This document shows positions 1-12,917 of a stretch of 25,135 nucleotides of DNA, in pieces. A program made the translations under genes and the position numbers. The first letter of the stretch is position 1, and each line of letters starts with the position of its first letter. The notes under the pieces are model-generated. The model did no database searches and was not told where the DNA came from. It was given only the letters and a program-made list of their open reading frames with translations. Source of the DNA: a virus (taxonomy: Duplodnaviria > Heunggongvirae > Uroviricota > Caudoviricetes); IMG/VR virus record IMGVR_UViG_3300043436_001089. One strand, given 5' to 3'.

Positions 1-37
1 TAATCATTACATAGACAGTTAACTAAAGGACTCAGAA

Positions 38-253
38 ATGGCAAACTACTCAATGTACACAGGTTTTGGTAACGATGCAGTTGACGCAATTGTGCGTAGT
101 GCTAAAGTACTCAAAATGGAATGGCCCGCTGTTCTTGCTGAACTCCAATCTTTGGCTGAGCGTTTCCCCGAAGACTTCGGCGAAGCTACTGACACCGCAG
201 TCCGTGAATGTGTCTATCACGCACTTGATTTTGACACCCCCTTCTATATTTGA
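38..253 (+). CDS. small hypothetical early protein (71 aa)
   Basis: ORF with AAGGA RBS upstream; leader resembles the repeated early cassette; stop TGA lies inside the next TTGACA. Confidence 0.8.
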   Translation: MANYSMYTGFGNDAVDAIVRSAKVLKMEWPAVLAELQSLAERFPEDFGEATDTAVRECVYHALDFDTPFYI

Positions 254-4382: not shown

Positions 4383-4573
4383 TGAATATAAAAATGACTA
4401 CTTACGAACGCATTGCCGAGAAACTACTGAAGGGTCAGCCCAAGGCAAAGAGATTCGGTCTATTCGACGGTAAGCGTTTTTGGACAGGAACACAAAGCCT
4501 GCACCGAACAAAACAGTCAAGAATTTGGCGACTTTTTTGGCGATTAAAGCAAAATCGTATGCCCAAAATTTGA
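4379..4573 (+). CDS. small basic hypothetical protein; start uncertain (4379, 4382 or 4394)
   Basis: start overlaps the upstream stop; stop lies inside the next -35 box. Confidence 0.55.
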   Translation: MMNIKMTTYERIAEKLLKGQPKAKRFGLFDGKRFWTGTQSLHRTKQSRIWRLFWRLKQNRMPKI

Positions 4574-4598
4574 CATTTAATCCATTTGGTTGTATAAT
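4570..4598 (+). promoter_or_regulatory. sigma70-type early promoter
   Basis: TTGACA, 17 nt, TATAAT. Confidence 0.8.
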
Positions 4599-4631: not shown

Positions 4632-4859
4632 ATGAAAACACAATTGCAAGCTGAAATGAAACGCATTCGTGACCTGTTGCCCACAGAGTTGTTTGAAGGC
4701 AGCAAGGACTGGCGTGAAGGTAACACAGTTGAGCGCATTGAATGGTTGTTGAGTATGTACGAAAGTTCAAAGCAAGAAGTTGAGCGTTTGGAAAAGCTGG
4801 TTGACGATATTGAAGATGACCTTGCTTCCGAAAGACAATTTAACTTTGATCGGACTTGA
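4632..4859 (+). CDS. hypothetical coiled-coil protein (75 aa)
   Basis: start trimmed to MKTQLQ (AGGA RBS). Confidence 0.75.
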   Translation: MKTQLQAEMKRIRDLLPTELFEGSKDWREGNTVERIEWLLSMYESSKQEVERLEKLVDDIEDDLASERQFNFDRT

Positions 4860-4884
4860 CGAAAAAAGTAAAGTCTGATATAAT
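4856..4884 (+). promoter_or_regulatory. sigma70-type promoter of the NadM-Nudix/macrodomain operon
   Basis: TTGACG, 17 nt, TATAAT, with TGn extended -10. Confidence 0.75.
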
Positions 4885-4900
4885 AAGATAAATAAAACAA

Positions 4901-4948
4901 AGCAACGAGATAGACTCCGCGCTGACATTATTGAAAGGATTTTTCAAT
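4901..4948 (+). promoter_or_regulatory. putative structured 5' leader (ATAGA-loop hairpin plus SD hairpin), copy 1
   Basis: AGC-AAC-GAG-ATAGA-CTC-CGC-GCT (4901-4923); ATTGAAA-GGATT-TTTCAAT (4930-4948) covers SD and start. Confidence 0.5.
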
Positions 4949-5273
4949 GTCTAAATTAACTCTCTTCGCCATCGAAGAAAAAATCAAACAACATGAGCAA
5001 GGTCTCAAAGACTTGCAAGCCCAACTGATTGAGGCTAAACTCGAATCTCCAGATCACCAACTTGCCAAAGAGTTGCATAGTTTGCTTTGCTATCAGAACC
5101 ATACTGATGGTTGCGGTTGGCACTATGAATATAAAAACAAAAAAGATGACTGGACAGGTTATGCTCACACTGAGTATTTGAAAAAAGCACAGAAAATGAT
5201 CTGCCATTGTGAAGAACATGGCATGGATATTGCTTCTACTCTTACAGCATTCAAATTGATTCGAGGTTACTAA
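4947..5273 (+). CDS. hypothetical protein with H-x3-C-x3-H-x3-C putative metal-binding motif
   Basis: LHSLLCYQNHTDGCGW; AAGGA RBS. Confidence 0.75.
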   Translation: MSKLTLFAIEEKIKQHEQGLKDLQAQLIEAKLESPDHQLAKELHSLLCYQNHTDGCGWHYEYKNKKDDWTGYAHTEYLKKAQKMICHCEEHGMDIASTLTAFKLIRGY

Positions 5274-5274
5274 T

Positions 5275-5463
5275 ATGACAAAACAATACGAAATCACTGT
5301 CAAGATTTTGGTCACCGTGCCCAATGACAATAGTTTGGGTATGAACGCGGATCAATGGGCCGGCAAAATTGCGGGCGACTGGGCAAACATGGCGCTGACT
5401 TACAGAAACATCGGTGCTGACGAAGTTGTGGAAGTAACTGCTAAGGAGGCAGAAAATGTCTAA
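5275..5463 (+). CDS. small hypothetical protein (62 aa)
   Basis: tightly packed in the operon, overlaps the next start. Confidence 0.7.
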   Translation: MTKQYEITVKILVTVPNDNSLGMNADQWAGKIAGDWANMALTYRNIGADEVVEVTAKEAENV

Positions 5464-6478
5464 AAAATACGATACACTTGTCCTCATTGGACGCTTTCAA
5501 CCCTTACACAATGCTCACCTTGAGATTATCAAACGTGCCACAGCATTGACTGACCAATTGGTTATCATCACCGGTTCTGCCGCACAGCCCCGCACTTACA
5601 AAAACCCCTTCACTAGCAAAGAACGTGCTAGCATGATTAAGGACGCTACTCGCGGTCTTAACATGCATGTTTATGTTGAAGAAAATATTGACACCATCTA
5701 CAACGACCAAGCTTGGGCTATTCGTGTTCAAGGCATCGTTAGTAAATATCGTGTACTCGGTGGTAAAGGTGTAGGCATCATTGGTCACAAGAAAGATGAC
5801 TCTAGTTTCTACCTCGACATGTTCCCTCAATGGGGTTACGAGAATGTGGAACTGATTGAATTCTTGAGTGCGGTTGACATTCGTGACCTGTATTTCAAGC
5901 GTGAAGTCAATATGAAATTCATTAAAGGTGTTGTGCCTGAATCAACATTTGATTTCTTGGATGAATTCCGTATCACACCCGAGTATGAGCAAATCATCAA
6001 GGAGCGTGAGTTCGTGGCTAACTACAAAAAACAATATGCTAGTCTGCCATATCCCCCAATCTTCTCTACTGCGGATAGTGTAGTGATTCAGTCGGGTCAT
6101 GTGTTGATGATTAAACGCCGTAGCGAACCTGGTAAAGGCTTGTGGGCATTGCCCGGTGGTTATGTTAATGCTAACACTGACAAGACTGTACTGGATGCGG
6201 CCATTCGTGAACTGCGTGAAGAAACATTAATCAAAGTGCCCGGTCCTGTACTGCGTGGTAGTATTGTTGATAACCGTGTGTTTGATGCTGTGGATCGTAG
6301 CCCACGTGGTCGTATCATTACACACTGTTTCAAAATCGTATTGCCTGATGGTGAACTGCCAAAAGTAAAAGGCAGTGACGATGCTGAAAAAGCACGATGG
6401 GTTCCTATCGCAGAAGTGCGTAGTGAAGAATGTTTTGAAGACCACTATGACATGGTCATGTGGGCAGTTGGAGCTTGA
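5456..6478 (+). CDS. nadM: bifunctional NMN adenylyltransferase / Nudix (ADP-ribose pyrophosphatase), NadM-Nudix/NatV type
   Basis: N-terminal IGRFQPLHNAH nucleotidyltransferase motif, IITGSA..KNPFT; C-terminal Nudix box WALPGG...AAIRELREET and GSDDAEKARW; AAGGAGG RBS. Confidence 0.9.
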   Translation: MSKKYDTLVLIGRFQPLHNAHLEIIKRATALTDQLVIITGSAAQPRTYKNPFTSKERASMIKDATRGLNMHVYVEENIDTIYNDQAWAIRVQGIVSKYRVLGGKGVGIIGHKKDDSSFYLDMFPQWGYENVELIEFLSAVDIRDLYFKREVNMKFIKGVVPESTFDFLDEFRITPEYEQIIKEREFVANYKKQYASLPYPPIFSTADSVVIQSGHVLMIKRRSEPGKGLWALPGGYVNANTDKTVLDAAIRELREETLIKVPGPVLRGSIVDNRVFDAVDRSPRGRIITHCFKIVLPDGELPKVKGSDDAEKARWVPIAEVRSEECFEDHYDMVMWAVGA

Positions 6479-6479
6479 T

Positions 6480-6692
6480 ATGAATGAACGAATTCGACAA
6501 CTTGCCCGTGATTCATACATGGTCGAAGTGGTGTGTAGCCAGAAATCCGTCAAGGTCAACTACCCCAAGAACTTTGAAAAGTTCGCCGAGTTGATTGTCA
6601 GGGAATGTTATCTGTGGGCCAAAGAAAATGGTGGCCTGGGCTGTGAGGAAGATTTTGAAGCGTTAAAAGAACATTTCGGAGTTGAAGAATGA
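6480..6692 (+). CDS. small hypothetical of the MNERI...EKFAELIVREC...EHFGVEE type recalled from freshwater phages
   Basis: start trimmed to MNERIRQLA; family recognised from memory only. Confidence 0.7.
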   Translation: MNERIRQLARDSYMVEVVCSQKSVKVNYPKNFEKFAELIVRECYLWAKENGGLGCEEDFEALKEHFGVEE

Positions 6693-6874
6693 CAACAATA
6701 CCTTACGAACAATTAGAATACGGACCAATGGACGAAATTGATGCGGCTATTTGGAATGGCGATATGTTTCACAATCGTGATAACATTCGGGAATTTCGTG
6801 ATATGATGGCACGGTGGGAACGCGGATTAAAAATGTGCGAAGACATACTAAACGAAGTACCGGAGAACGAATAA
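6689..6874 (+). CDS. small acidic hypothetical protein (61 aa)
   Basis: ATGA overlap with the upstream gene, GGAG RBS. Confidence 0.7.
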   Translation: MTTIPYEQLEYGPMDEIDAAIWNGDMFHNRDNIREFRDMMARWERGLKMCEDILNEVPENE

Positions 6875-7092
6875 TGAATGATGATATTTGTCTATCGTGT
6901 AAACATGGTGGCATTCACTATTGTCCGGATAAGAATGGTAATCCTATACCGAAAGGCAATCATTCATCCCCACCACCTGAATTACCAGACAGTGTAAATT
7001 TCTGGACATATATTTCTTGTAAGAAAAATTTTGGTCTGCCTAAGGCAGCCTACATCAACAAGTGCCCGCTGTGGCAATCAAAAGGAAAGTAA
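6874..7092 (+). CDS. Cys-rich hypothetical protein (72 aa)
   Basis: TAATG coupling at both ends; CLSCKH..HYC...C...C. Confidence 0.6.
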   Translation: MNDDICLSCKHGGIHYCPDKNGNPIPKGNHSSPPPELPDSVNFWTYISCKKNFGLPKAAYINKCPLWQSKGK

Positions 7093-7613
7093 TGAGACAC
7101 TATACAAACACTGATAACCCTGTTGACTTCCCAGTAACGGCATTGAAACACACTAAAGGTAATCTACTCGACCTAGCAGAAGCAGGCGAGTTTGATGTAG
7201 TTGTTCAAGGATGCAATTGCTTTAACACAATGGGTGGTGGTATCGCACGTGAGATTCGTGAACGCTATCCACATGTGGCAGAAGCAGATGCAGAAACCGT
7301 TCGTGGTGACTACAATAAGTTAGGCAACTGGACTAGAGCAGGAGTTGTTGAAGAACCAAAATATGCCTTCACAATTATTAACGCCTACACTCAGTTTGAC
7401 ATGAGCCAAGGTACTGATGTATTTGAATACATTGCATTTGAACTGATCCTTCAGAAGTTGGTTAGACTATACGGAAACTATTCTATTGGTCTACCCTACA
7501 TTGGTATGGGTCTGGCAGGTGGCGACAAAGATATCATCATCCCGATGATTGAATCGTTCGCTGAACAAGTTTCGGCTAAAGGTGGCACTGTCACTTTGGT
7601 CGAATTCGGTTGA
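7092..7613 (+). CDS. macrodomain (Appr-1-p processing / ADP-ribose binding) protein
   Basis: start trimmed to MRHY; KGNLL, VVQGCNCFNTMGGGIA, IINAYTQ, GLPYIGMGLAGGD motifs. Confidence 0.88.
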   Translation: MRHYTNTDNPVDFPVTALKHTKGNLLDLAEAGEFDVVVQGCNCFNTMGGGIAREIRERYPHVAEADAETVRGDYNKLGNWTRAGVVEEPKYAFTIINAYTQFDMSQGTDVFEYIAFELILQKLVRLYGNYSIGLPYIGMGLAGGDKDIIIPMIESFAEQVSAKGGTVTLVEFG

Positions 7614-7638
7614 CATTAAAATAGGTTAATGTTATACT
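7610..7638 (+). promoter_or_regulatory. sigma70-type promoter of NAMPT
   Basis: TTGACA, 17 nt, TATACT, with TGn extended -10. Confidence 0.8.
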
Positions 7639-7648
7639 GTATCTAAGT

Positions 7649-7691
7649 CCTAGCGATAGACGCAAGGCAATTTAAATAAAGGAACTTTATT
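7649..7691 (+). promoter_or_regulatory. putative structured 5' leader (ATAGA-loop hairpin plus SD hairpin), copy 2
   Basis: CCT-A-GCG-ATAGA-CGC-A-AGG (7649-7667); AATAAAG-GAA-CTTTATT (7675-7691) covers the SD just before ATG. Confidence 0.5.
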
Positions 7692-9092
7692 ATGAAACTC
7701 GCAAAAAATCTTATCCTGAACACTGACAGTTACAAAGTCAGTATGTTCAAACAATACCCAGCAGGAACCACAGGTGTATACTCGTATATTGAGTCGAGGG
7801 GTGGGCGTTATGATAGCACAGTATTCTTCGGACTACAGGCTTTTATCAAAGAATACTTACTGGCGCCAATCACGCAGATGGATATTGACATCGCTGACGA
7901 AATCCTTACCGCACACGGTGAGCCTTTCAACCGAGCAGGATGGCAGTACATTCTTGACAAGCACAATGGATATCTCCCACTTGTCATTCGATCCGTCCCT
8001 GAGGGAACAGTTGTACCAGTTAAAAACGTCCTTGCTACAATCGAAAACACAGATCCAAACGTCCCTTGGTTGACTACTTGGGTTGAAACCCCGATCCTTC
8101 GAGCAGTGTGGTATGGTACTACTGTATCTACACAAAGCAAATTCATTAAAAACATCATCACAGAGTACTTGGAGAAGTCAGGTGACCCTACAACTATTGG
8201 TTTTAAGTTACATGATTTCGGTGCTCGTGGTGTCTCTAGCCTGGAGTCTGCTGGTATCGGTGGTGCCGCACACCTTGTTAACTTCATGGGGACTGATACC
8301 CTCAGCGGTATACTGTTGGCTCGTGAATATTACAACGCTGGTGTTGCTGGTTTCTCCATCCCAGCCGCTGAACACAGTACTATCACTAGTTGGGGTCGTG
8401 CCGGTGAAGTAAAAGCCTACAGCAACATGGTCAAGCAGTTTGGTGTACCAGGTGCATTGTTGGCAGTAGTGTCTGACAGTTACGACATTTACGAAGCATG
8501 CCGCATGTGGAGTACCGGTGACTTGAAACAGCAAGTGATTGACAGTGGTGCTACAGTTGTGATTCGTCCTGACAGTGGTGATCCTGTAGAAGTGTTGCCA
8601 AAGATGTTCCGCATCTTGGCTGAAGGCTTCGGCTACACTACAAACACTAAAGGCTACAAAGTACTGAACAATGTTCGTGTACTGTGGGGCGATGGTATCA
8701 ACCAGTTGAGCATCAAGTCAATTCTCAGCGTAATGGTTGACATGCATGGCTACAGTGCAGATAACATTGCATTCGGTATGGGCGGTGCATTGTTGCAACA
8801 ACTTGACCGCGATACTCAAAAGTTCGCTATGAAGTGTTCAAGTGCAGAAGTCAACGGTGAATGGATTGATGTGTTCAAAGATCCAATCACTGACCAAGTG
8901 AAAGCCTCTAAGAAAGGTCGTATCACTCTTTGGCAGTCTGGTGGTGAGTTTCAATCTAGTGTTGAACAACCAAAAGGATGGACTGACAAGGGTATTGGTC
9001 CTTGGACAGAGGCACTGGTTGAAGTGTATCGTGATGGTAAACTCATCCGAGAATACACCTTTGACGAAGTTCGTGCGAACAGCATGAAATAA
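7692..9092 (+). CDS. nadV: nicotinamide phosphoribosyltransferase (NAMPT)
   Basis: 466 aa; TDSYK, HDFGARG, NFMGTDT (Asp typical of nicotinamide specificity), PAAEHS, VSDSYD, IRPDSGDP, WGDGI, FGMGGALLQ, SKKGR. Confidence 0.92.
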   Translation: MKLAKNLILNTDSYKVSMFKQYPAGTTGVYSYIESRGGRYDSTVFFGLQAFIKEYLLAPITQMDIDIADEILTAHGEPFNRAGWQYILDKHNGYLPLVIRSVPEGTVVPVKNVLATIENTDPNVPWLTTWVETPILRAVWYGTTVSTQSKFIKNIITEYLEKSGDPTTIGFKLHDFGARGVSSLESAGIGGAAHLVNFMGTDTLSGILLAREYYNAGVAGFSIPAAEHSTITSWGRAGEVKAYSNMVKQFGVPGALLAVVSDSYDIYEACRMWSTGDLKQQVIDSGATVVIRPDSGDPVEVLPKMFRILAEGFGYTTNTKGYKVLNNVRVLWGDGINQLSIKSILSVMVDMHGYSADNIAFGMGGALLQQLDRDTQKFAMKCSSAEVNGEWIDVFKDPITDQVKASKKGRITLWQSGGEFQSSVEQPKGWTDKGIGPWTEALVEVYRDGKLIREYTFDEVRANSMK

Positions 9093-9116
9093 AGAAAGGG
9101 GCACTTGCCCTTTTCT
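9093..9116 (+). terminator. intrinsic terminator after nadV
   Basis: AGAAAGGGGC-ACTT-GCCCTTTTCT hairpin, T-rich 3' side. Confidence 0.7.
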
Positions 9117-9184: not shown

Positions 9185-10243
9185 ATGACTCGTTTTATTA
9201 AAAATGGCAATCACTTCATGGTAGCATCCGAAGAATCTATGGATGTGCGCAATGAGTTGCCGCCCGGTAATTACACTGTTAAAGAAATGCCAATGGGCGG
9301 CCCGTTGTATCTAGAACATATTGATAGTTTCACTCCGCTTTCTAAAGTGTACGGTGACTGTTTGAAGAACACTGATCGGGTTATTCGTACTTTCATGGAT
9401 CGTCCTGCGGCTACTGGCATTATGCTGACTGGTGAGAAGGGTTCTGGTAAAACATTGTTGACCAAGAACATTGCGATTGAATTGGCAAAGCAAGGTATCC
9501 CTACTATTGTTATCAACGCCGCATGGCATGGTGACAAGTTCAATAGCTTCATTCAAACTATCACTCAGCCATGCGCTATCTTGTTTGATGAATTTGAAAA
9601 GACTTATGACCGTGATGAACAGGAAGCAATCTTGACTTTGCTTGATGGAGTGTTCCCTTCTAAAAAGTTGTTCATGTTGACAACTAACGACAAGTACCGT
9701 GTTGACTATCACATGCGTAATCGTCCTGGTCGTATTTTCTACATGCTTGACTTTAAAGGTCTGGATGCTGAGTTCATTCGTGAATACTGCGAAGACAATT
9801 TGAAGAATACTAGCCAGATTGACAAGATTGTGAATATCTCTAGCTTGTTCTCAGAATTCAACTTTGACATGCTGAAAGCATTGGTTGAAGAAATGAATCG
9901 CTACGATGAATCTCCGCAGGAAGCATTGCGTATGTTGAACGCTAAGCCTGAGTTCGATGGCGGCTCCAAGTACGATGTTGAAGTTGTACATAACGGTGAA
10001 CTGGTCAAGGGCGATGTTAACCCTGCAGTCTTTAACGGTAACCCACTACAACCAAAAGGTGTCGAAATTTCTTTTGATGCTGACCCTGATGGTGATACTG
10101 ATTGGGAATACATGGAGTTCAATGCTAACGCATTGGTCTCTGTTGATGCACAAGCAGGTAAGTTTGTCTTTGAGGACAAAGGTACTCGTCTGACACTGAC
10201 TAAGGTCAAGAATAAGAGCTATGACTTCTACGGCGCTTTTTGA
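9185..10243 (+). CDS. AAA+ family ATPase
   Basis: Walker A GEKGSGKT, Walker B ILFDEFEK, sensor LTTN, NRPGRI arginine-finger region. Confidence 0.88.
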   Translation: MTRFIKNGNHFMVASEESMDVRNELPPGNYTVKEMPMGGPLYLEHIDSFTPLSKVYGDCLKNTDRVIRTFMDRPAATGIMLTGEKGSGKTLLTKNIAIELAKQGIPTIVINAAWHGDKFNSFIQTITQPCAILFDEFEKTYDRDEQEAILTLLDGVFPSKKLFMLTTNDKYRVDYHMRNRPGRIFYMLDFKGLDAEFIREYCEDNLKNTSQIDKIVNISSLFSEFNFDMLKALVEEMNRYDESPQEALRMLNAKPEFDGGSKYDVEVVHNGELVKGDVNPAVFNGNPLQPKGVEISFDADPDGDTDWEYMEFNANALVSVDAQAGKFVFEDKGTRLTLTKVKNKSYDFYGAF

Positions 10244-10385: not shown

Positions 10386-10402
10386 CACTTTGGGTATACA
10401 AT
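10374..10402 (+). promoter_or_regulatory. sigma70-type early promoter
   Basis: TTGACA, 17 nt, TACAAT. Confidence 0.8.
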
Positions 10403-10434
10403 AGAATCTTAGACAGTTAAATAAAGGACTTAAA

Positions 10435-10719
10435 ATGACATTGCAAGAAATCAATCGCTCTATCATCAGTGGCACTTTCTCTAATGAGGATCTGAATTCT
10501 ATCGGGGATGCTATCAAGTTTGCCCGTTCTCAAATTGCAAATAAAAACAAATTTACACTGGTTAAAGGTACTAGTGTGAAGTTCACAAATTCGCGGTCGG
10601 GACAAACAGTGGTTGGCACTGTTGAAAAAGTCAACCGCAAATTTATCATTGTTCAGGAAAAAGGTAAGGCATTTGGTGGCTCATGGAGAGTTCCTGCTAA
10701 CATGTTGTCTGCCGCTTAA
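10435..10719 (+). CDS. hypothetical protein, possible C-terminal SH3-like beta-barrel
   Basis: AAGGA RBS; VKF...GTVEKVNRKFIIV...WRVPANML pattern. Confidence 0.8.
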   Translation: MTLQEINRSIISGTFSNEDLNSIGDAIKFARSQIANKNKFTLVKGTSVKFTNSRSGQTVVGTVEKVNRKFIIVQEKGKAFGGSWRVPANMLSAA

Positions 10720-11267: not shown

Positions 11268-11495
11268 ATGGAATATCAGTGCTTTTATCTGAACCCTGAG
11301 TACAAACTGGCTCACGATGACGATGCCGAACTGTTGTTTGAAACTGACAACTTGGGCGAAGCGTGTACTTTCGTGTACAATAAATTCAACCAAGAAAAGC
11401 GTGACATCGCAGTTTACCAGCCCCGCAATCAGGGCTACTGTCAATACTACCAAAACAAGCTCCGCAATTCTAAAGGTCAATTCGTAAAAGGTTGA
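11268..11495 (+). CDS. small hypothetical early protein (75 aa)
   Basis: start trimmed to MEYQ (AAGGAG RBS); stop inside the next -35. Confidence 0.75.
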   Translation: MEYQCFYLNPEYKLAHDDDAELLFETDNLGEACTFVYNKFNQEKRDIAVYQPRNQGYCQYYQNKLRNSKGQFVKG

Positions 11496-11520
11496 CAATA
11501 AATCAGTTTGGGCATATAAT
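11492..11520 (+). promoter_or_regulatory. sigma70-type early promoter
   Basis: TTGACA, 17 nt, TATAAT. Confidence 0.85.
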
Positions 11521-11550: not shown

Positions 11551-11781
11551 ATGACCAAGCAATTCGTACAAGTTAGTGCCCAAAAAGACAGCAACAATTT
11601 TGCACTCTGTAGCAACCTGAGCATCATGGCATATGATGGTCTGACTGCCGAGCAGGCCCTGTGCAAATTGCAGGAGATGGCGGATGAATATGGAGCGAAG
11701 GGTTACGATATCGAATGGATTCGTAGCGATTTCGATGCAATTGACGAAGAAATGTACGGCGACTTGTTTGCCCAAATTTGA
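11551..11781 (+). CDS. small acidic hypothetical early protein (76 aa)
   Basis: AAGGA RBS; stop inside the next -35. Confidence 0.75.
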   Translation: MTKQFVQVSAQKDSNNFALCSNLSIMAYDGLTAEQALCKLQEMADEYGAKGYDIEWIRSDFDAIDEEMYGDLFAQI

Positions 11782-11806
11782 CAATAAATGGTTTTGGTGC
11801 TATAAT
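11778..11806 (+). promoter_or_regulatory. sigma70-type early promoter
   Basis: TTGACA, 17 nt, TATAAT, with TGn. Confidence 0.85.
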
Positions 11807-11838
11807 AGAATCTTAAACAGTCAACTAAAGGAAACGAA

Positions 11839-12264
11839 ATGGCTTACTTCAATCAAGAACGCAAAAAAGAACGTGCTCCGGTTATCAAATCTATCCTGAA
11901 AAAGTACGGTGTCAAAGGTTCGCTTGCTGTGCGTAACCACTCTACTTTTGTCCTGAACGTCAAGTCGGGTTCTGTTGACTTTATTGAAAACTATATCAAG
12001 ACCGATGCTGACAAAAACTACGGTAACAAATTGTCGCAGGATCAAATCGACTATATCCGTAACAACAAATCTTTGGATGTGAATCCCTACTGGTATCAAG
12101 AACACTATTCGGGTAAGGCTCTTTCTTTCCTTAAGGAAGTGTTTACTGCAATGAACAAAGGTAATCACGACAATTCGGATGTCCAAACTGACTACTTTGA
12201 TGTGGGTTGGTATGTTGATGTGAACATTGGTTCTTGGGACAAGCCCTACACTTTGGAAAAATAA
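11839..12264 (+). CDS. conserved-looking phage hypothetical protein (141 aa)
   Basis: AAGGA RBS; aromatic/acidic C-terminus SDVQTDYFDVGWYVDVNIGSWDKPY. Confidence 0.8.
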   Translation: MAYFNQERKKERAPVIKSILKKYGVKGSLAVRNHSTFVLNVKSGSVDFIENYIKTDADKNYGNKLSQDQIDYIRNNKSLDVNPYWYQEHYSGKALSFLKEVFTAMNKGNHDNSDVQTDYFDVGWYVDVNIGSWDKPYTLEK

Positions 12265-12438: not shown

Positions 12439-12467
12439 TTGACAGTTATAACGCCCGGTGTTATAAT
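12439..12467 (+). promoter_or_regulatory. sigma70-type promoter embedded in an 11-bp inverted repeat
   Basis: TTGACA, 17 nt, TATAAT; GTTGACAGTTA(12438-12448)/TAACTGTCAAC(12470-12480). Confidence 0.8.
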
Positions 12468-12524
12468 AGTAACTGTCAACATTGACATTTTATTAACTTA
12501 GTCTAATCTTAAAGGGAACTTATA

Positions 12525-12917
12525 ATGGCTAACGCAAATCAAACTTTCAAAGTCGCTGGTATCACTGTTCATAATGGTAATGCTAAGGTTCGTTTCACTG
12601 ATGATATGGTTCGCCGTATCAAACAGTTTACTAAAGGTGGCGCAACCCGCGTTGACTTTATTGAATTGCCGAGTGAGATGACCAAGCTTGAAGCACTTGC
12701 TTATATGGCAAAACATGCAGAATTTCAATCTGCTGAGGATCAGGCAACTATTGCGGATACTACTTCTGACAAGACAAAAGAAGCAAGTAAAGGTACTGTA
12801 AAAGTTAAGGCATCCAAGCCTAGCATTGAATCTATCAAGGCTCGTGGCAAGAAGAAAGAAGTCACACCCGAGCAAGTTCTCGCGGCCGCTGACTTGCATA
12901 ACGTGGATCCCGCATAA
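12525..12917 (+). CDS. hypothetical protein with Lys-rich C-terminal tail, possibly nucleic-acid binding
   Basis: 130 aa; AAGGG RBS; KTKEASKGTVKVKASKPSIESIKARGKKK. Confidence 0.8.
   Translation: MANANQTFKVAGITVHNGNAKVRFTDDMVRRIKQFTKGGATRVDFIELPSEMTKLEALAYMAKHAEFQSAEDQATIADTTSDKTKEASKGTVKVKASKPSIESIKARGKKKEVTPEQVLAAADLHNVDPA

Follow-up and report, generated by a model that had tools for sequence, protein, structure and literature searches.

A two-hairpin leader RNA before the NAD-salvage genes nadM and nadV of phages and bacteria: a candidate protein-read translational operator with lineage-specific loops

NadV and NadM/NatV make up the NARP2 pathway, by which phages rebuild nicotinamide adenine dinucleotide (NAD+) after an NAD-depleting defence. 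NARP2 consumes phosphoribosyl pyrophosphate (PRPP) and overproduces NAD+ even when no defence system is present, hence it is costly, and its regulation is not mentioned in the paper that defines it (10.1101/2024.02.11.579819). Control of NAD biosynthesis, salvage and transport is known from the NAD+-I riboswitch (nadA), the NAD+-II riboswitch (pnuC), which also masks the Shine-Dalgarno (SD) sequence, and NrtR, a DNA-binding repressor. Short hairpins at or over the ribosome-binding site, in which the stem covaries freely and specificity resides in a few loop nucleotides, are known from E. coli thrS (read by ThrRS), from gene 43 of phages T4 and RB69 and from the coat-protein operators of MS2 and PP7. 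Here we describe two mRNA leaders, possibly of this latter kind, in a 25,135-nucleotide stretch of DNA from a virus of the Caudoviricetes (IMG/VR record IMGVR_UViG_3300043436_001089; we call the whole stretch the window), each consisting of two small hairpins, P1 and P2, one leader standing before the nadM operon and the other before nadV. Feedback of an enzyme on its own synthesis, as in those operators, is proposed here too. Unlike them, however, the element is carried by two genes, has the SD and AUG in a second hairpin and is shared by phages and bacterial chromosomes, and its reader is only a candidate.

The two leaders and the two NAD-salvage genes lie in the window as follows.

4901-4923, plus strand: P1 of leader 1, a nine-layer hairpin (5' arm 4901-4909, 3' arm 4915-4923)
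4924-4928, plus strand: linker of leader 1, GACAU, G-poor
4929-4949, plus strand: P2 of leader 1, an 8-bp AU-rich hairpin, -4.2 kcal/mol
5456-6478, plus strand: nadM, bifunctional nicotinamide mononucleotide (NMN) adenylyltransferase / Nudix ADP-ribose pyrophosphatase (Pfam CTP_transf_like and NUDIX)
7649-7667 (extendable to 7647-7668), plus strand: P1 of leader 2, -6.7 kcal/mol, z -2.5
7675-7691, plus strand: P2 of leader 2, a 7-bp AU-rich hairpin, -2.3 kcal/mol, z -5.7
7692-9092, plus strand: nadV, nicotinamide phosphoribosyltransferase (NAMPT; Pfam NAMPT_N and NAPRTase)

The apical loop of P1 is AUAGA in both leaders (4910-4914 and 7656-7660), closed by G4909-C4915 in leader 1 and by G7655-C7661 in leader 2. 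Below the loop, leader 1 has an inner GAG/CTC stem, a 3x3 internal loop (AAC/CGC) and an outer AGC/GCT stem, and leader 2 has an inner GCG/CGC stem, an A/A mismatch and an outer CCU/AGG stem. P2 of leader 1 contains the SD AAGGA (4935-4939), the GGA of which lies in the hairpin loop (4937-4941), and the ATG (4947-4949) within its 3' arm; P2 of leader 2 contains the SD AAGGA (7679-7683), and the start codon (7692-7694) abuts the hairpin. In the minimum-free-energy structure of leader 1 the linker GACAU alternatively pairs with AUGUC of the start region. P1 begins 3-10 nt from the inferred 5' ends in the window. The original prediction, made from the sequence of the window, had placed ATAGA-loop hairpins followed by SD-containing hairpins in both NAD leaders, and re-reading the sequence confirmed them at their coordinates; it had also remarked that other leaders lack this architecture, and indeed about 40 further translation starts in the window all lack a hairpin resembling P2.

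Taken by itself, the window gives evidence that is suggestive. GATAGAC occurs six times against 1.9 expected, and with G/C-flanked palindromic arms four times against 0.37 expected; the folding energies of the whole leaders are not significant (z of -1.3 and -1.5). A covariance model of P1 (R1) scored leader 2 at 36.9 bits and leader 1 at 34.3 bits, with the next-best match in the window at 8.9 bits. That gap is why we judged the lower-scoring palindrome to be a chance 11-mer and not a true copy:

210-220, minus strand: third palindromic GATAGAC (GTG-ATAGA-CAC), R1 8.9 bits, inside a plus-strand open reading frame (ORF) and with no P2

The evidence that carries the element is comparative. We assembled 80 viral contigs by NadV similarity and 11 by similarity to the 108-amino-acid (aa) ORF that heads the nadM operon in the window, ranging from fragments to complete 355-kb jumbo phages; the loci were gathered through NadV, and nadV-free contexts were sampled only through ten whole genomes. 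A similarity search of the phage collection found no close relative of the window itself. In the 100 nt 5' of nadV, related phages carry the same element with GATAGAC invariant and with compensatory changes in the arms of P1, both in the inner stem (GCG/CGC, GAG/CTC, AGG/CCT) and in the outer stem (CCT/AGG, CCA/TGG, CCC/GGG, GCAT/ATGC). A regular-expression scan of the contigs yielded 84 distinct two-hairpin leaders, in which the nine P1 pairs, aligned with MAFFT, had a covariation of 0.44 against 0.13 in shuffles (none of 500 shuffles was as high) and at most 0.13 in slid-alignment controls. The pair adjoining the closing G-C, for example, is AU in 36 of these leaders, CG in 32, GC in 10 and UA in 4. 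A covariance model of both hairpins (R2) gave 100 matches in 80 phage loci, all on the coding strand; across these matches, in an alignment that was fitted to the model, P1 and P2 together covaried at 0.44 against 0.12, and P2 was 94% paired, with pairs such as AU 32, CG 25, GC 18 and UA 13. We also noted a weak R2 match in the window at 12479-12527 on the plus strand (19.9 bits, E 0.44), before an ORF starting at 12525; it has no ANAGA loop, and its AT-rich SD/ATG context probably explains it.

In whole phage genomes the element is confined to NAD-salvage genes. Each of five near-complete jumbo phages (235-355 kb) has two strong matches to the P1 model, which are the leaders of the nadM operon and of nadV; one of them has a third, weaker but real copy, which is that genome's nadM leader, and two further weaker matches come without a P2. 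Weak matches to R1 or R3, the bacterial model described below (L102, L103 and L204-L206, and for R3 near position 2160 in Variovorax), were rejected as coding-region hairpins with no P2. The gene 3' of the phage element is nadV, nadM, or a small ORF heading the nadM operon. Such ORFs come from families with no relation to one another (phrog_12218, 37251, 33851 or none) and are passengers outside the conserved unit. The 108-aa protein of the window was considered as a general reader of the element and excluded, because most carriers have no 108-aa ORF and unrelated small ORFs take that place elsewhere; a search with it returned only 8 close relatives, and a look-up in the Atlas gave no lead. 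In several phages the nadV copy lies directly 3' of the nadM stop codon, overlapping it and having no promoter, which argues that the element acts in RNA. Of the related phage nadV leaders, about one in four has no P1 but keeps a covarying P2, and Vibrio phages KVP40 and VCPH and Enterobacter phage EC-F2 have no recognisable P1 of the classes described below.

The original prediction had cast the element as a means of controlling phage NAD salvage; the gene association stood, and the restriction to phages did not. In a sample of 80 bacterial nadV loci, 37-38 have the same architecture about 50 nt 5' of nadV and of the adjacent nadM, among them loci from Lysobacteraceae, Achromobacter, Rhodocyclaceae, Chromatiales, Bacterioplanoides, Microbulbifer and Halomonas, and all 69 strong bacterial matches are on the coding strand. 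The bacterial P1 loops are AUAGA, ACAGA, AAAGA and AGAGA, so that position 2 is free. P2 is GC-rich in bacteria (mean -8.8 kcal/mol, compared with -3.6 in phages), and the AUG is either part of its 3' arm or directly adjoins it. Phages and bacteria have the same spacing between the P1 loop and P2 (15 +/- 3 nt, with a P1-P2 linker of about 7 +/- 3 nt across 132 leaders), a constancy from which P1 and P2 appear to be coupled. Covariation among 61 distinct bacterial leaders was 0.38 against 0.15 in shuffles. Since the phage-trained R2 performs poorly on the GC-rich bacterial copies, a separate bacterial model (R3) was built; over five bacterial genomes of 3.2-7 Mb, all of which have both nadM and nadV, it gave exactly two strong matches each, the nadM and nadV leaders, and the next-best matches were coding-region hairpins without P2. 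Thus the check on related genomes, for the hairpin and its covariation upstream of NAD genes, came out strongly positive in phages and bacteria alike. One bacterial carrier also encodes the transcriptional regulator:

L170:1831-2559, minus strand: NrtR gene (Nudix and NrtR winged-helix domains) on a Bacterioplanoides chromosome, divergent from the nadM-nadV operon

In that genome the RNA leader stands before both genes of the operon beside the NrtR gene, which suggests an RNA layer additional to NrtR rather than a substitute for it.

Searches for a named family to which the leaders might belong were negative. At gathering score, no Rfam 15 family matches anywhere in the window; with E values up to 10, leader 1 has no match and leader 2 only DUF2815 RNA (RF03084), which we rejected at 16.3 bits and E 0.46 against a gathering score of 41.2. 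The DUF2815 model runs from a conserved 5' block through a 25-nt hairpin to the SD and AUG; in leader 2 that hairpin is replaced by 5 nt, and the likeness is mostly SD/AUG and UAGAC. Literature searches on nadV/nadM motifs, on phage nadV riboswitches and on a third NAD+ riboswitch found no description of the element. The NAD+-II riboswitch is a pseudoknot with a triple helix, in which a hairpin loop or internal loop pairs at long range with the SD region and an A-rich strand makes the triple helix (PMC10085692), and this arrangement was not found in the leaders. The original prediction had recognised neither an NAD-I nor an NAD-II riboswitch nor an NrtR operator here, and this is borne out by the Rfam result and by sites that do not fit an NrtR operator. 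Likewise its central claim, an undescribed cis-regulatory element coordinating NAD-salvage genes, is supported by the comparative covariation, the gene specificity and the want of a named-family match, and we file the element as a new RNA family that would work like a protein-read translational operator.

The same scaffold of P1, linker and P2 is found with different P1 loops, which fall into the classes ANAGA (class I), GUUGA (class II), GYRGU, GWWGUA and GCGRA. In Variovorax and its relatives both genes are preceded by the scaffold with a GUUGA loop, whose closing pair is A-U in the nadM leader and G-C in the nadV leader; 37 distinct sequences of this class covary at 0.64 against 0.19. Phages with a divergent NadM have a G-C-closed loop G(U/C)(A/G)GU before nadM (covariation 0.83 against 0.25), and their nadV leader keeps the covarying P2 only. 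The Rak2-like cultured jumbo phages GAP32, XbC2, Yen9-04 and Muenster have G-W-W-G-U-A hexaloops before both genes, E. coli phage EJP2 has GCGAA and GCGGA, and Synechococcus phage B23 has AUAGA before both genes. The sole constant across all classes is a G as the fourth nucleotide of the loop. Among phages with related enteric hosts the loops differ. Within a genome, however, the loop class is shared. Genomes with both leaders in class I number 38 and those with both in class II number 25, with no mixed genome, in a table whose 'none' and 'other' cells are mostly misses of a scanner that overlooks P1 hairpins with internal loops; in GAP32, XbC2, Yen9-04, Muenster and EJP2, too, both leaders of each genome have the same class. 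Since the two leaders of one genome have stems that bear no relation to each other, the common loop is not due to gene conversion of the whole hairpin. As far as can be told from these comparisons, such lineage-specific loop classes on one scaffold are new.

A few observations belong beside the loop classes. In part of the divergent-NadM phage clade, nadM is preceded by a different hairpin, GAUAUAU-AGA-AUAUAUC (L079:2190-2266, L080:2425-2501 and L077:2430-2510), which may be a further loop variant. The Rak2-like phages (GAP32, XbC2, Yen9-04, EJP2, Muenster and XaC1) have almost the same P2 sequence, ACUAAGGGAGUCUUAG, in their nadM and nadV leaders and from genus to genus. These phages also have a conserved gene of about 175 aa, of unassigned function, between nadM and nadV, in the place of which Muenster has a homing endonuclease.

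A close parallel to the loop classes is the boxB site read by N in lambdoid phages, which likewise has a covarying stem and a purine-rich pentaloop that is lineage-specific, with two copies per genome sharing the same loop. The boxB loop co-evolves with its phage-encoded reader N, and the pattern seen here, of one scaffold with a loop for each lineage, resembles that. Only the EJP2 loops (GCGAA and GCGGA) fit the GNR(N)A pattern of boxB, however, and boxB differs in serving transcription antitermination, where an arginine-rich peptide on the pentaloop allows read-through of downstream terminators, in having no tie to a single gene family and in being absent from bacterial chromosomes.

We therefore consider a model in which both sites of the window are copies of one cis-acting mRNA leader that would gate translation initiation of NAD-salvage genes. 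P2 would mask the SD and AUG in a short hairpin, and P1, about 7 nt upstream, would display its 5-nt apical loop as the recognition determinant for a trans-acting reader, with the sequence of the stem free. As translational operators require, a structured and conserved pairing does lie at the ribosome-binding site, P2 holding both SD and AUG. Because the loop changes from one lineage to the next but is shared by the two leaders of any one genome, and because the element accompanies the genes through phages of unrelated hosts and through bacterial chromosomes, the most probable reader is a protein that the module itself encodes. That phages infecting related enteric hosts differ in their loops argues against a host factor, and a shared small-molecule pocket is unlikely given that the loop nucleotides are not kept. 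No genes other than nadM and nadV occur in every carrier, which would make autogenous control economical. The bifunctional NadM-Nudix protein is the prime candidate for such a reader, and we regard a translational operator read by a module-encoded factor, with NadM-Nudix in that role, as an evenly balanced proposition.

Under this proposal NadM-Nudix would bind P1, and its nucleotide state (NAD+, NMN or ADP-ribose) would decide whether P2 is stabilised or released. From the P1 loop, at a distance of one helical turn plus the 7-nt linker, a bound factor could hold P2 closed or keep the 30S subunit out. Since P2 is weak in the AT-rich phages (-2 to -4 kcal/mol), its stabilisation by a bound factor is a plausible route to repression; activation, as by Com on the Mu mom mRNA, is just as possible. 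In either direction the nucleotide occupancy of NadM would couple synthesis of both enzymes to NAD status. There is precedent for a metabolic enzyme homologue in such a role in PyrR of the Bacillus pyr leaders, which has a phosphoribosyltransferase fold, responds to nucleotide co-effectors and binds a conserved hairpin loop found in several leaders of one pathway. PyrR differs in acting by transcription attenuation, through anti-antiterminator hairpins, and in reading a longer conserved loop, and its site has no Rfam match to the leaders. A bolder form of the proposal, in which NadM-Nudix moonlights as a sequence-specific RNA-binding protein, its metabolite occupancy locks the SD/AUG hairpin, and loop and protein co-evolve into orthogonal specificities, is one we hold to be doubtful.

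What points to NadM in particular is the distribution of P1. The loop classes map onto NadM clades, and P1 is always on the operon head or nadM and is sometimes absent from nadV. In some phages NadV is 71-76% identical to that of the window but NadM only 32-35%, and these have a different nadM loop and no P1 before nadV. On a NadV tree, built as a quick tree, this leader state is interspersed, requiring at least 5 changes, and its association with NadM type is complete (51/0/0/20). These comparisons favour a loop class that follows NadM rather than NadV.

Several considerations weigh on the other side. The association with NadM can be explained by linkage, since nadM lies upstream of the nadV leader and recombination of the block would give the same result, and the loop classes amount to few independent events, class II being a single clade. 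Loop positions 1 and 5 (A/A, G/A or G/U) could form a non-canonical pair, leaving a similar N-N-G triloop in the different classes, in which case one reader, or even one ligand, might accept several of them. We know of no RNA-binding activity in NadM-Nudix, and a literature search for NadM with mRNA binding or translational repression found nothing. Finally, the related phages, about one in four, that retain P2 but not P1 suggest that P2 has a role of its own.

This last point is where a reader-independent explanation begins. P2 would then merely tune initiation, and P1 would be a 5' or intercistronic stabiliser, or a processing signal, that needs no specific factor. The modest thermodynamics of the hairpins agrees with it, as does the position of P1 only 3-10 nt from the inferred 5' ends, where known stabilising 5' hairpins sit. 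A pure stabiliser, however, needs no invariant loop, and the loop is invariant in spite of NadM identities of about 42% and completely different stems; nor would it account for the loop shared by both leaders of a genome, for the restriction to two gene families in whole genomes, or for copies internal to operons. We think this explanation quite unlikely. A palindromic DNA operator for a transcription factor, for instance an NrtR-like repressor acting just 3' of the promoter, draws on the fact that the sites of the window lie within 20-30 bp of strong promoters, that NrtR controls nadM-nadV in some bacteria and that an NrtR gene adjoins the operon in one carrier. An NrtR operator, however, would be a conserved inverted repeat with two half-sites that functions whichever way round it lies and overlaps a promoter. 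Here the sequence of the arms is not conserved but covaries, the part that is conserved lacks symmetry, all copies face the same way with respect to their gene, intercistronic copies have no promoter, and no NrtR is encoded near the phage locus; moreover, 11 bp of core is not long enough for a dimeric winged-helix operator such as the NrtR boxes. Such an operator is very improbable, and in its symmetric form it is ruled out by the asymmetric, strand-specific loop, the covarying arms and the promoter-less intercistronic copies.

A riboswitch is the other way to view a leader of this sort: the RNA itself would bind NAD+, NMN, nicotinamide, ADP-ribose or PRPP, and P1 would dock on P2 to alter access to the SD and AUG. 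This would suit the strict gene association across many phage and bacterial lineages, the function of the element in unrelated hosts with no obvious common regulator, its coexistence with NrtR in one genome as an extra layer, and the presence of two small hairpins that keep a fixed spacing, the second of them lying on the ribosome-binding site. The guanidine-II riboswitch (mini-ykkC) is built in a similar way, with two small covarying hairpins, a short variable linker, tiny conserved loops and the second hairpin at the ribosome-binding site, but both its loops are ACGR and kiss through C-G pairs, whereas here the P1 loops and the P2 loops (GGAUU, GAA, GAG) are unrelated and non-complementary, and the P1 loop varies by lineage. 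Conservation within a class extends to no more than 5 unpaired nucleotides, and across classes to the G at loop position 4 alone, and the internal loops of P1 are dispensable, many stems being fully paired. No Rfam riboswitch model matches, and concerted loop switches in both leaders are unexpected for a ligand that does not change. Inspection of the leaders revealed no conserved alternative pairing, pseudoknot or loop-loop complementarity: in about 150 of them, neither the linker nor P2 nor the first codons contain a conserved sequence complementary to the P1 loop, and a pseudoknot or kissing partner in these places, in the 5' flank or in the loop of the other leader was rejected for want of conservation. 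The complements that do occur, GUCUA at ATGTCTA in leader 1 and CUAUC in bacterial nadM codons, are not conserved. An anti-SD role for the UCCU in the nadV-type P1 arm was likewise discarded as not general, since other P1 arms differ. We consider a riboswitch unlikely. Thus, among the three mechanisms that the original prediction had offered, the translational operator is favoured, a small ligand-sensing RNA has become unlikely, and the symmetric DNA operator is rejected.

The significance of a protein-read translational operator is that, if it is true, translational control of both genes would supply the missing control layer of the costly NARP2 pathway. The element spans freshwater jumbo phages, cyanophages and the chromosomes of Lysobacter and Variovorax, and makes up an orphan RNA family that covaries cleanly and has hundreds of members. 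If NadM-Nudix reads P1, the module would be a self-contained phage sensor of NAD depletion, working in any host, and orthogonal loop classes could serve as portable translational switches. Cultured carriers exist, namely Synechococcus phage B23 (ANAGA), GAP32 and EJP2 (other loops) and strains of Variovorax and Lysobacter, which makes the question of the loop reader directly testable.

The remaining features of the window concern the operons in which the leaders lie. Its first 13 kb has many near-consensus sigma-70 promoters on the plus strand (41 sigma-70-like sites against 26.7 expected), and both leaders follow one.

4856-4884, plus strand: sigma-70-type promoter of the nadM operon, TTGACG-17-TATAAT with TG, 11 of 12 matches
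4947-5273, plus strand: 108-aa ORF heading the nadM operon, phrog_12218 by PHROG match, unassigned function
7062-7613, plus strand: macrodomain-like protein at the end of the nadM operon, phrog_335 'phosphatase' (1e-40)
7610-7638, plus strand: sigma-70-type promoter of nadV, TTGACA-17-TATACT with TG, 11 of 12 matches
9185-10243, plus strand: AAA-type ATPase just 3' of nadV, phrog_2376, Pfam AAA
3945-3973, 4570-4598, 11492-11520, 11778-11806 and 12439-12467, plus strand: five perfect 12/12 sigma-70 promoters (TTGACA-17-TATAAT)

From the position of its promoter, the nadM-operon transcript would start near 4890-4892, and the 4856-4884 promoter is followed by the 108-aa ORF, a 62-aa ORF, nadM, small ORFs and the macrodomain-like protein. 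This last protein has weak PDB matches to ADP-ribose 1''-phosphate phosphatase and to YmdB-type macrodomains, and as its gene ends the nadM operon, a putative ADP-ribose-processing enzyme would be co-transcribed with NadM-Nudix. Between nadV and the AAA-type ATPase gene there is a hairpin at 9095-9113.

A separate conserved leader, ...atagaatcttaRacagtYaaNtaaaggaNNNNNaaATG, precedes the genes starting at 38, 10435 and 11839, each copy lying 3' of a consensus promoter.

1-40, plus strand: copy before the gene at 38
10390-10437, plus strand: copy before the gene at 10435
11795-11841, plus strand: copy before the gene at 11839

This shared leader looks like a repeated early-gene expression cassette.

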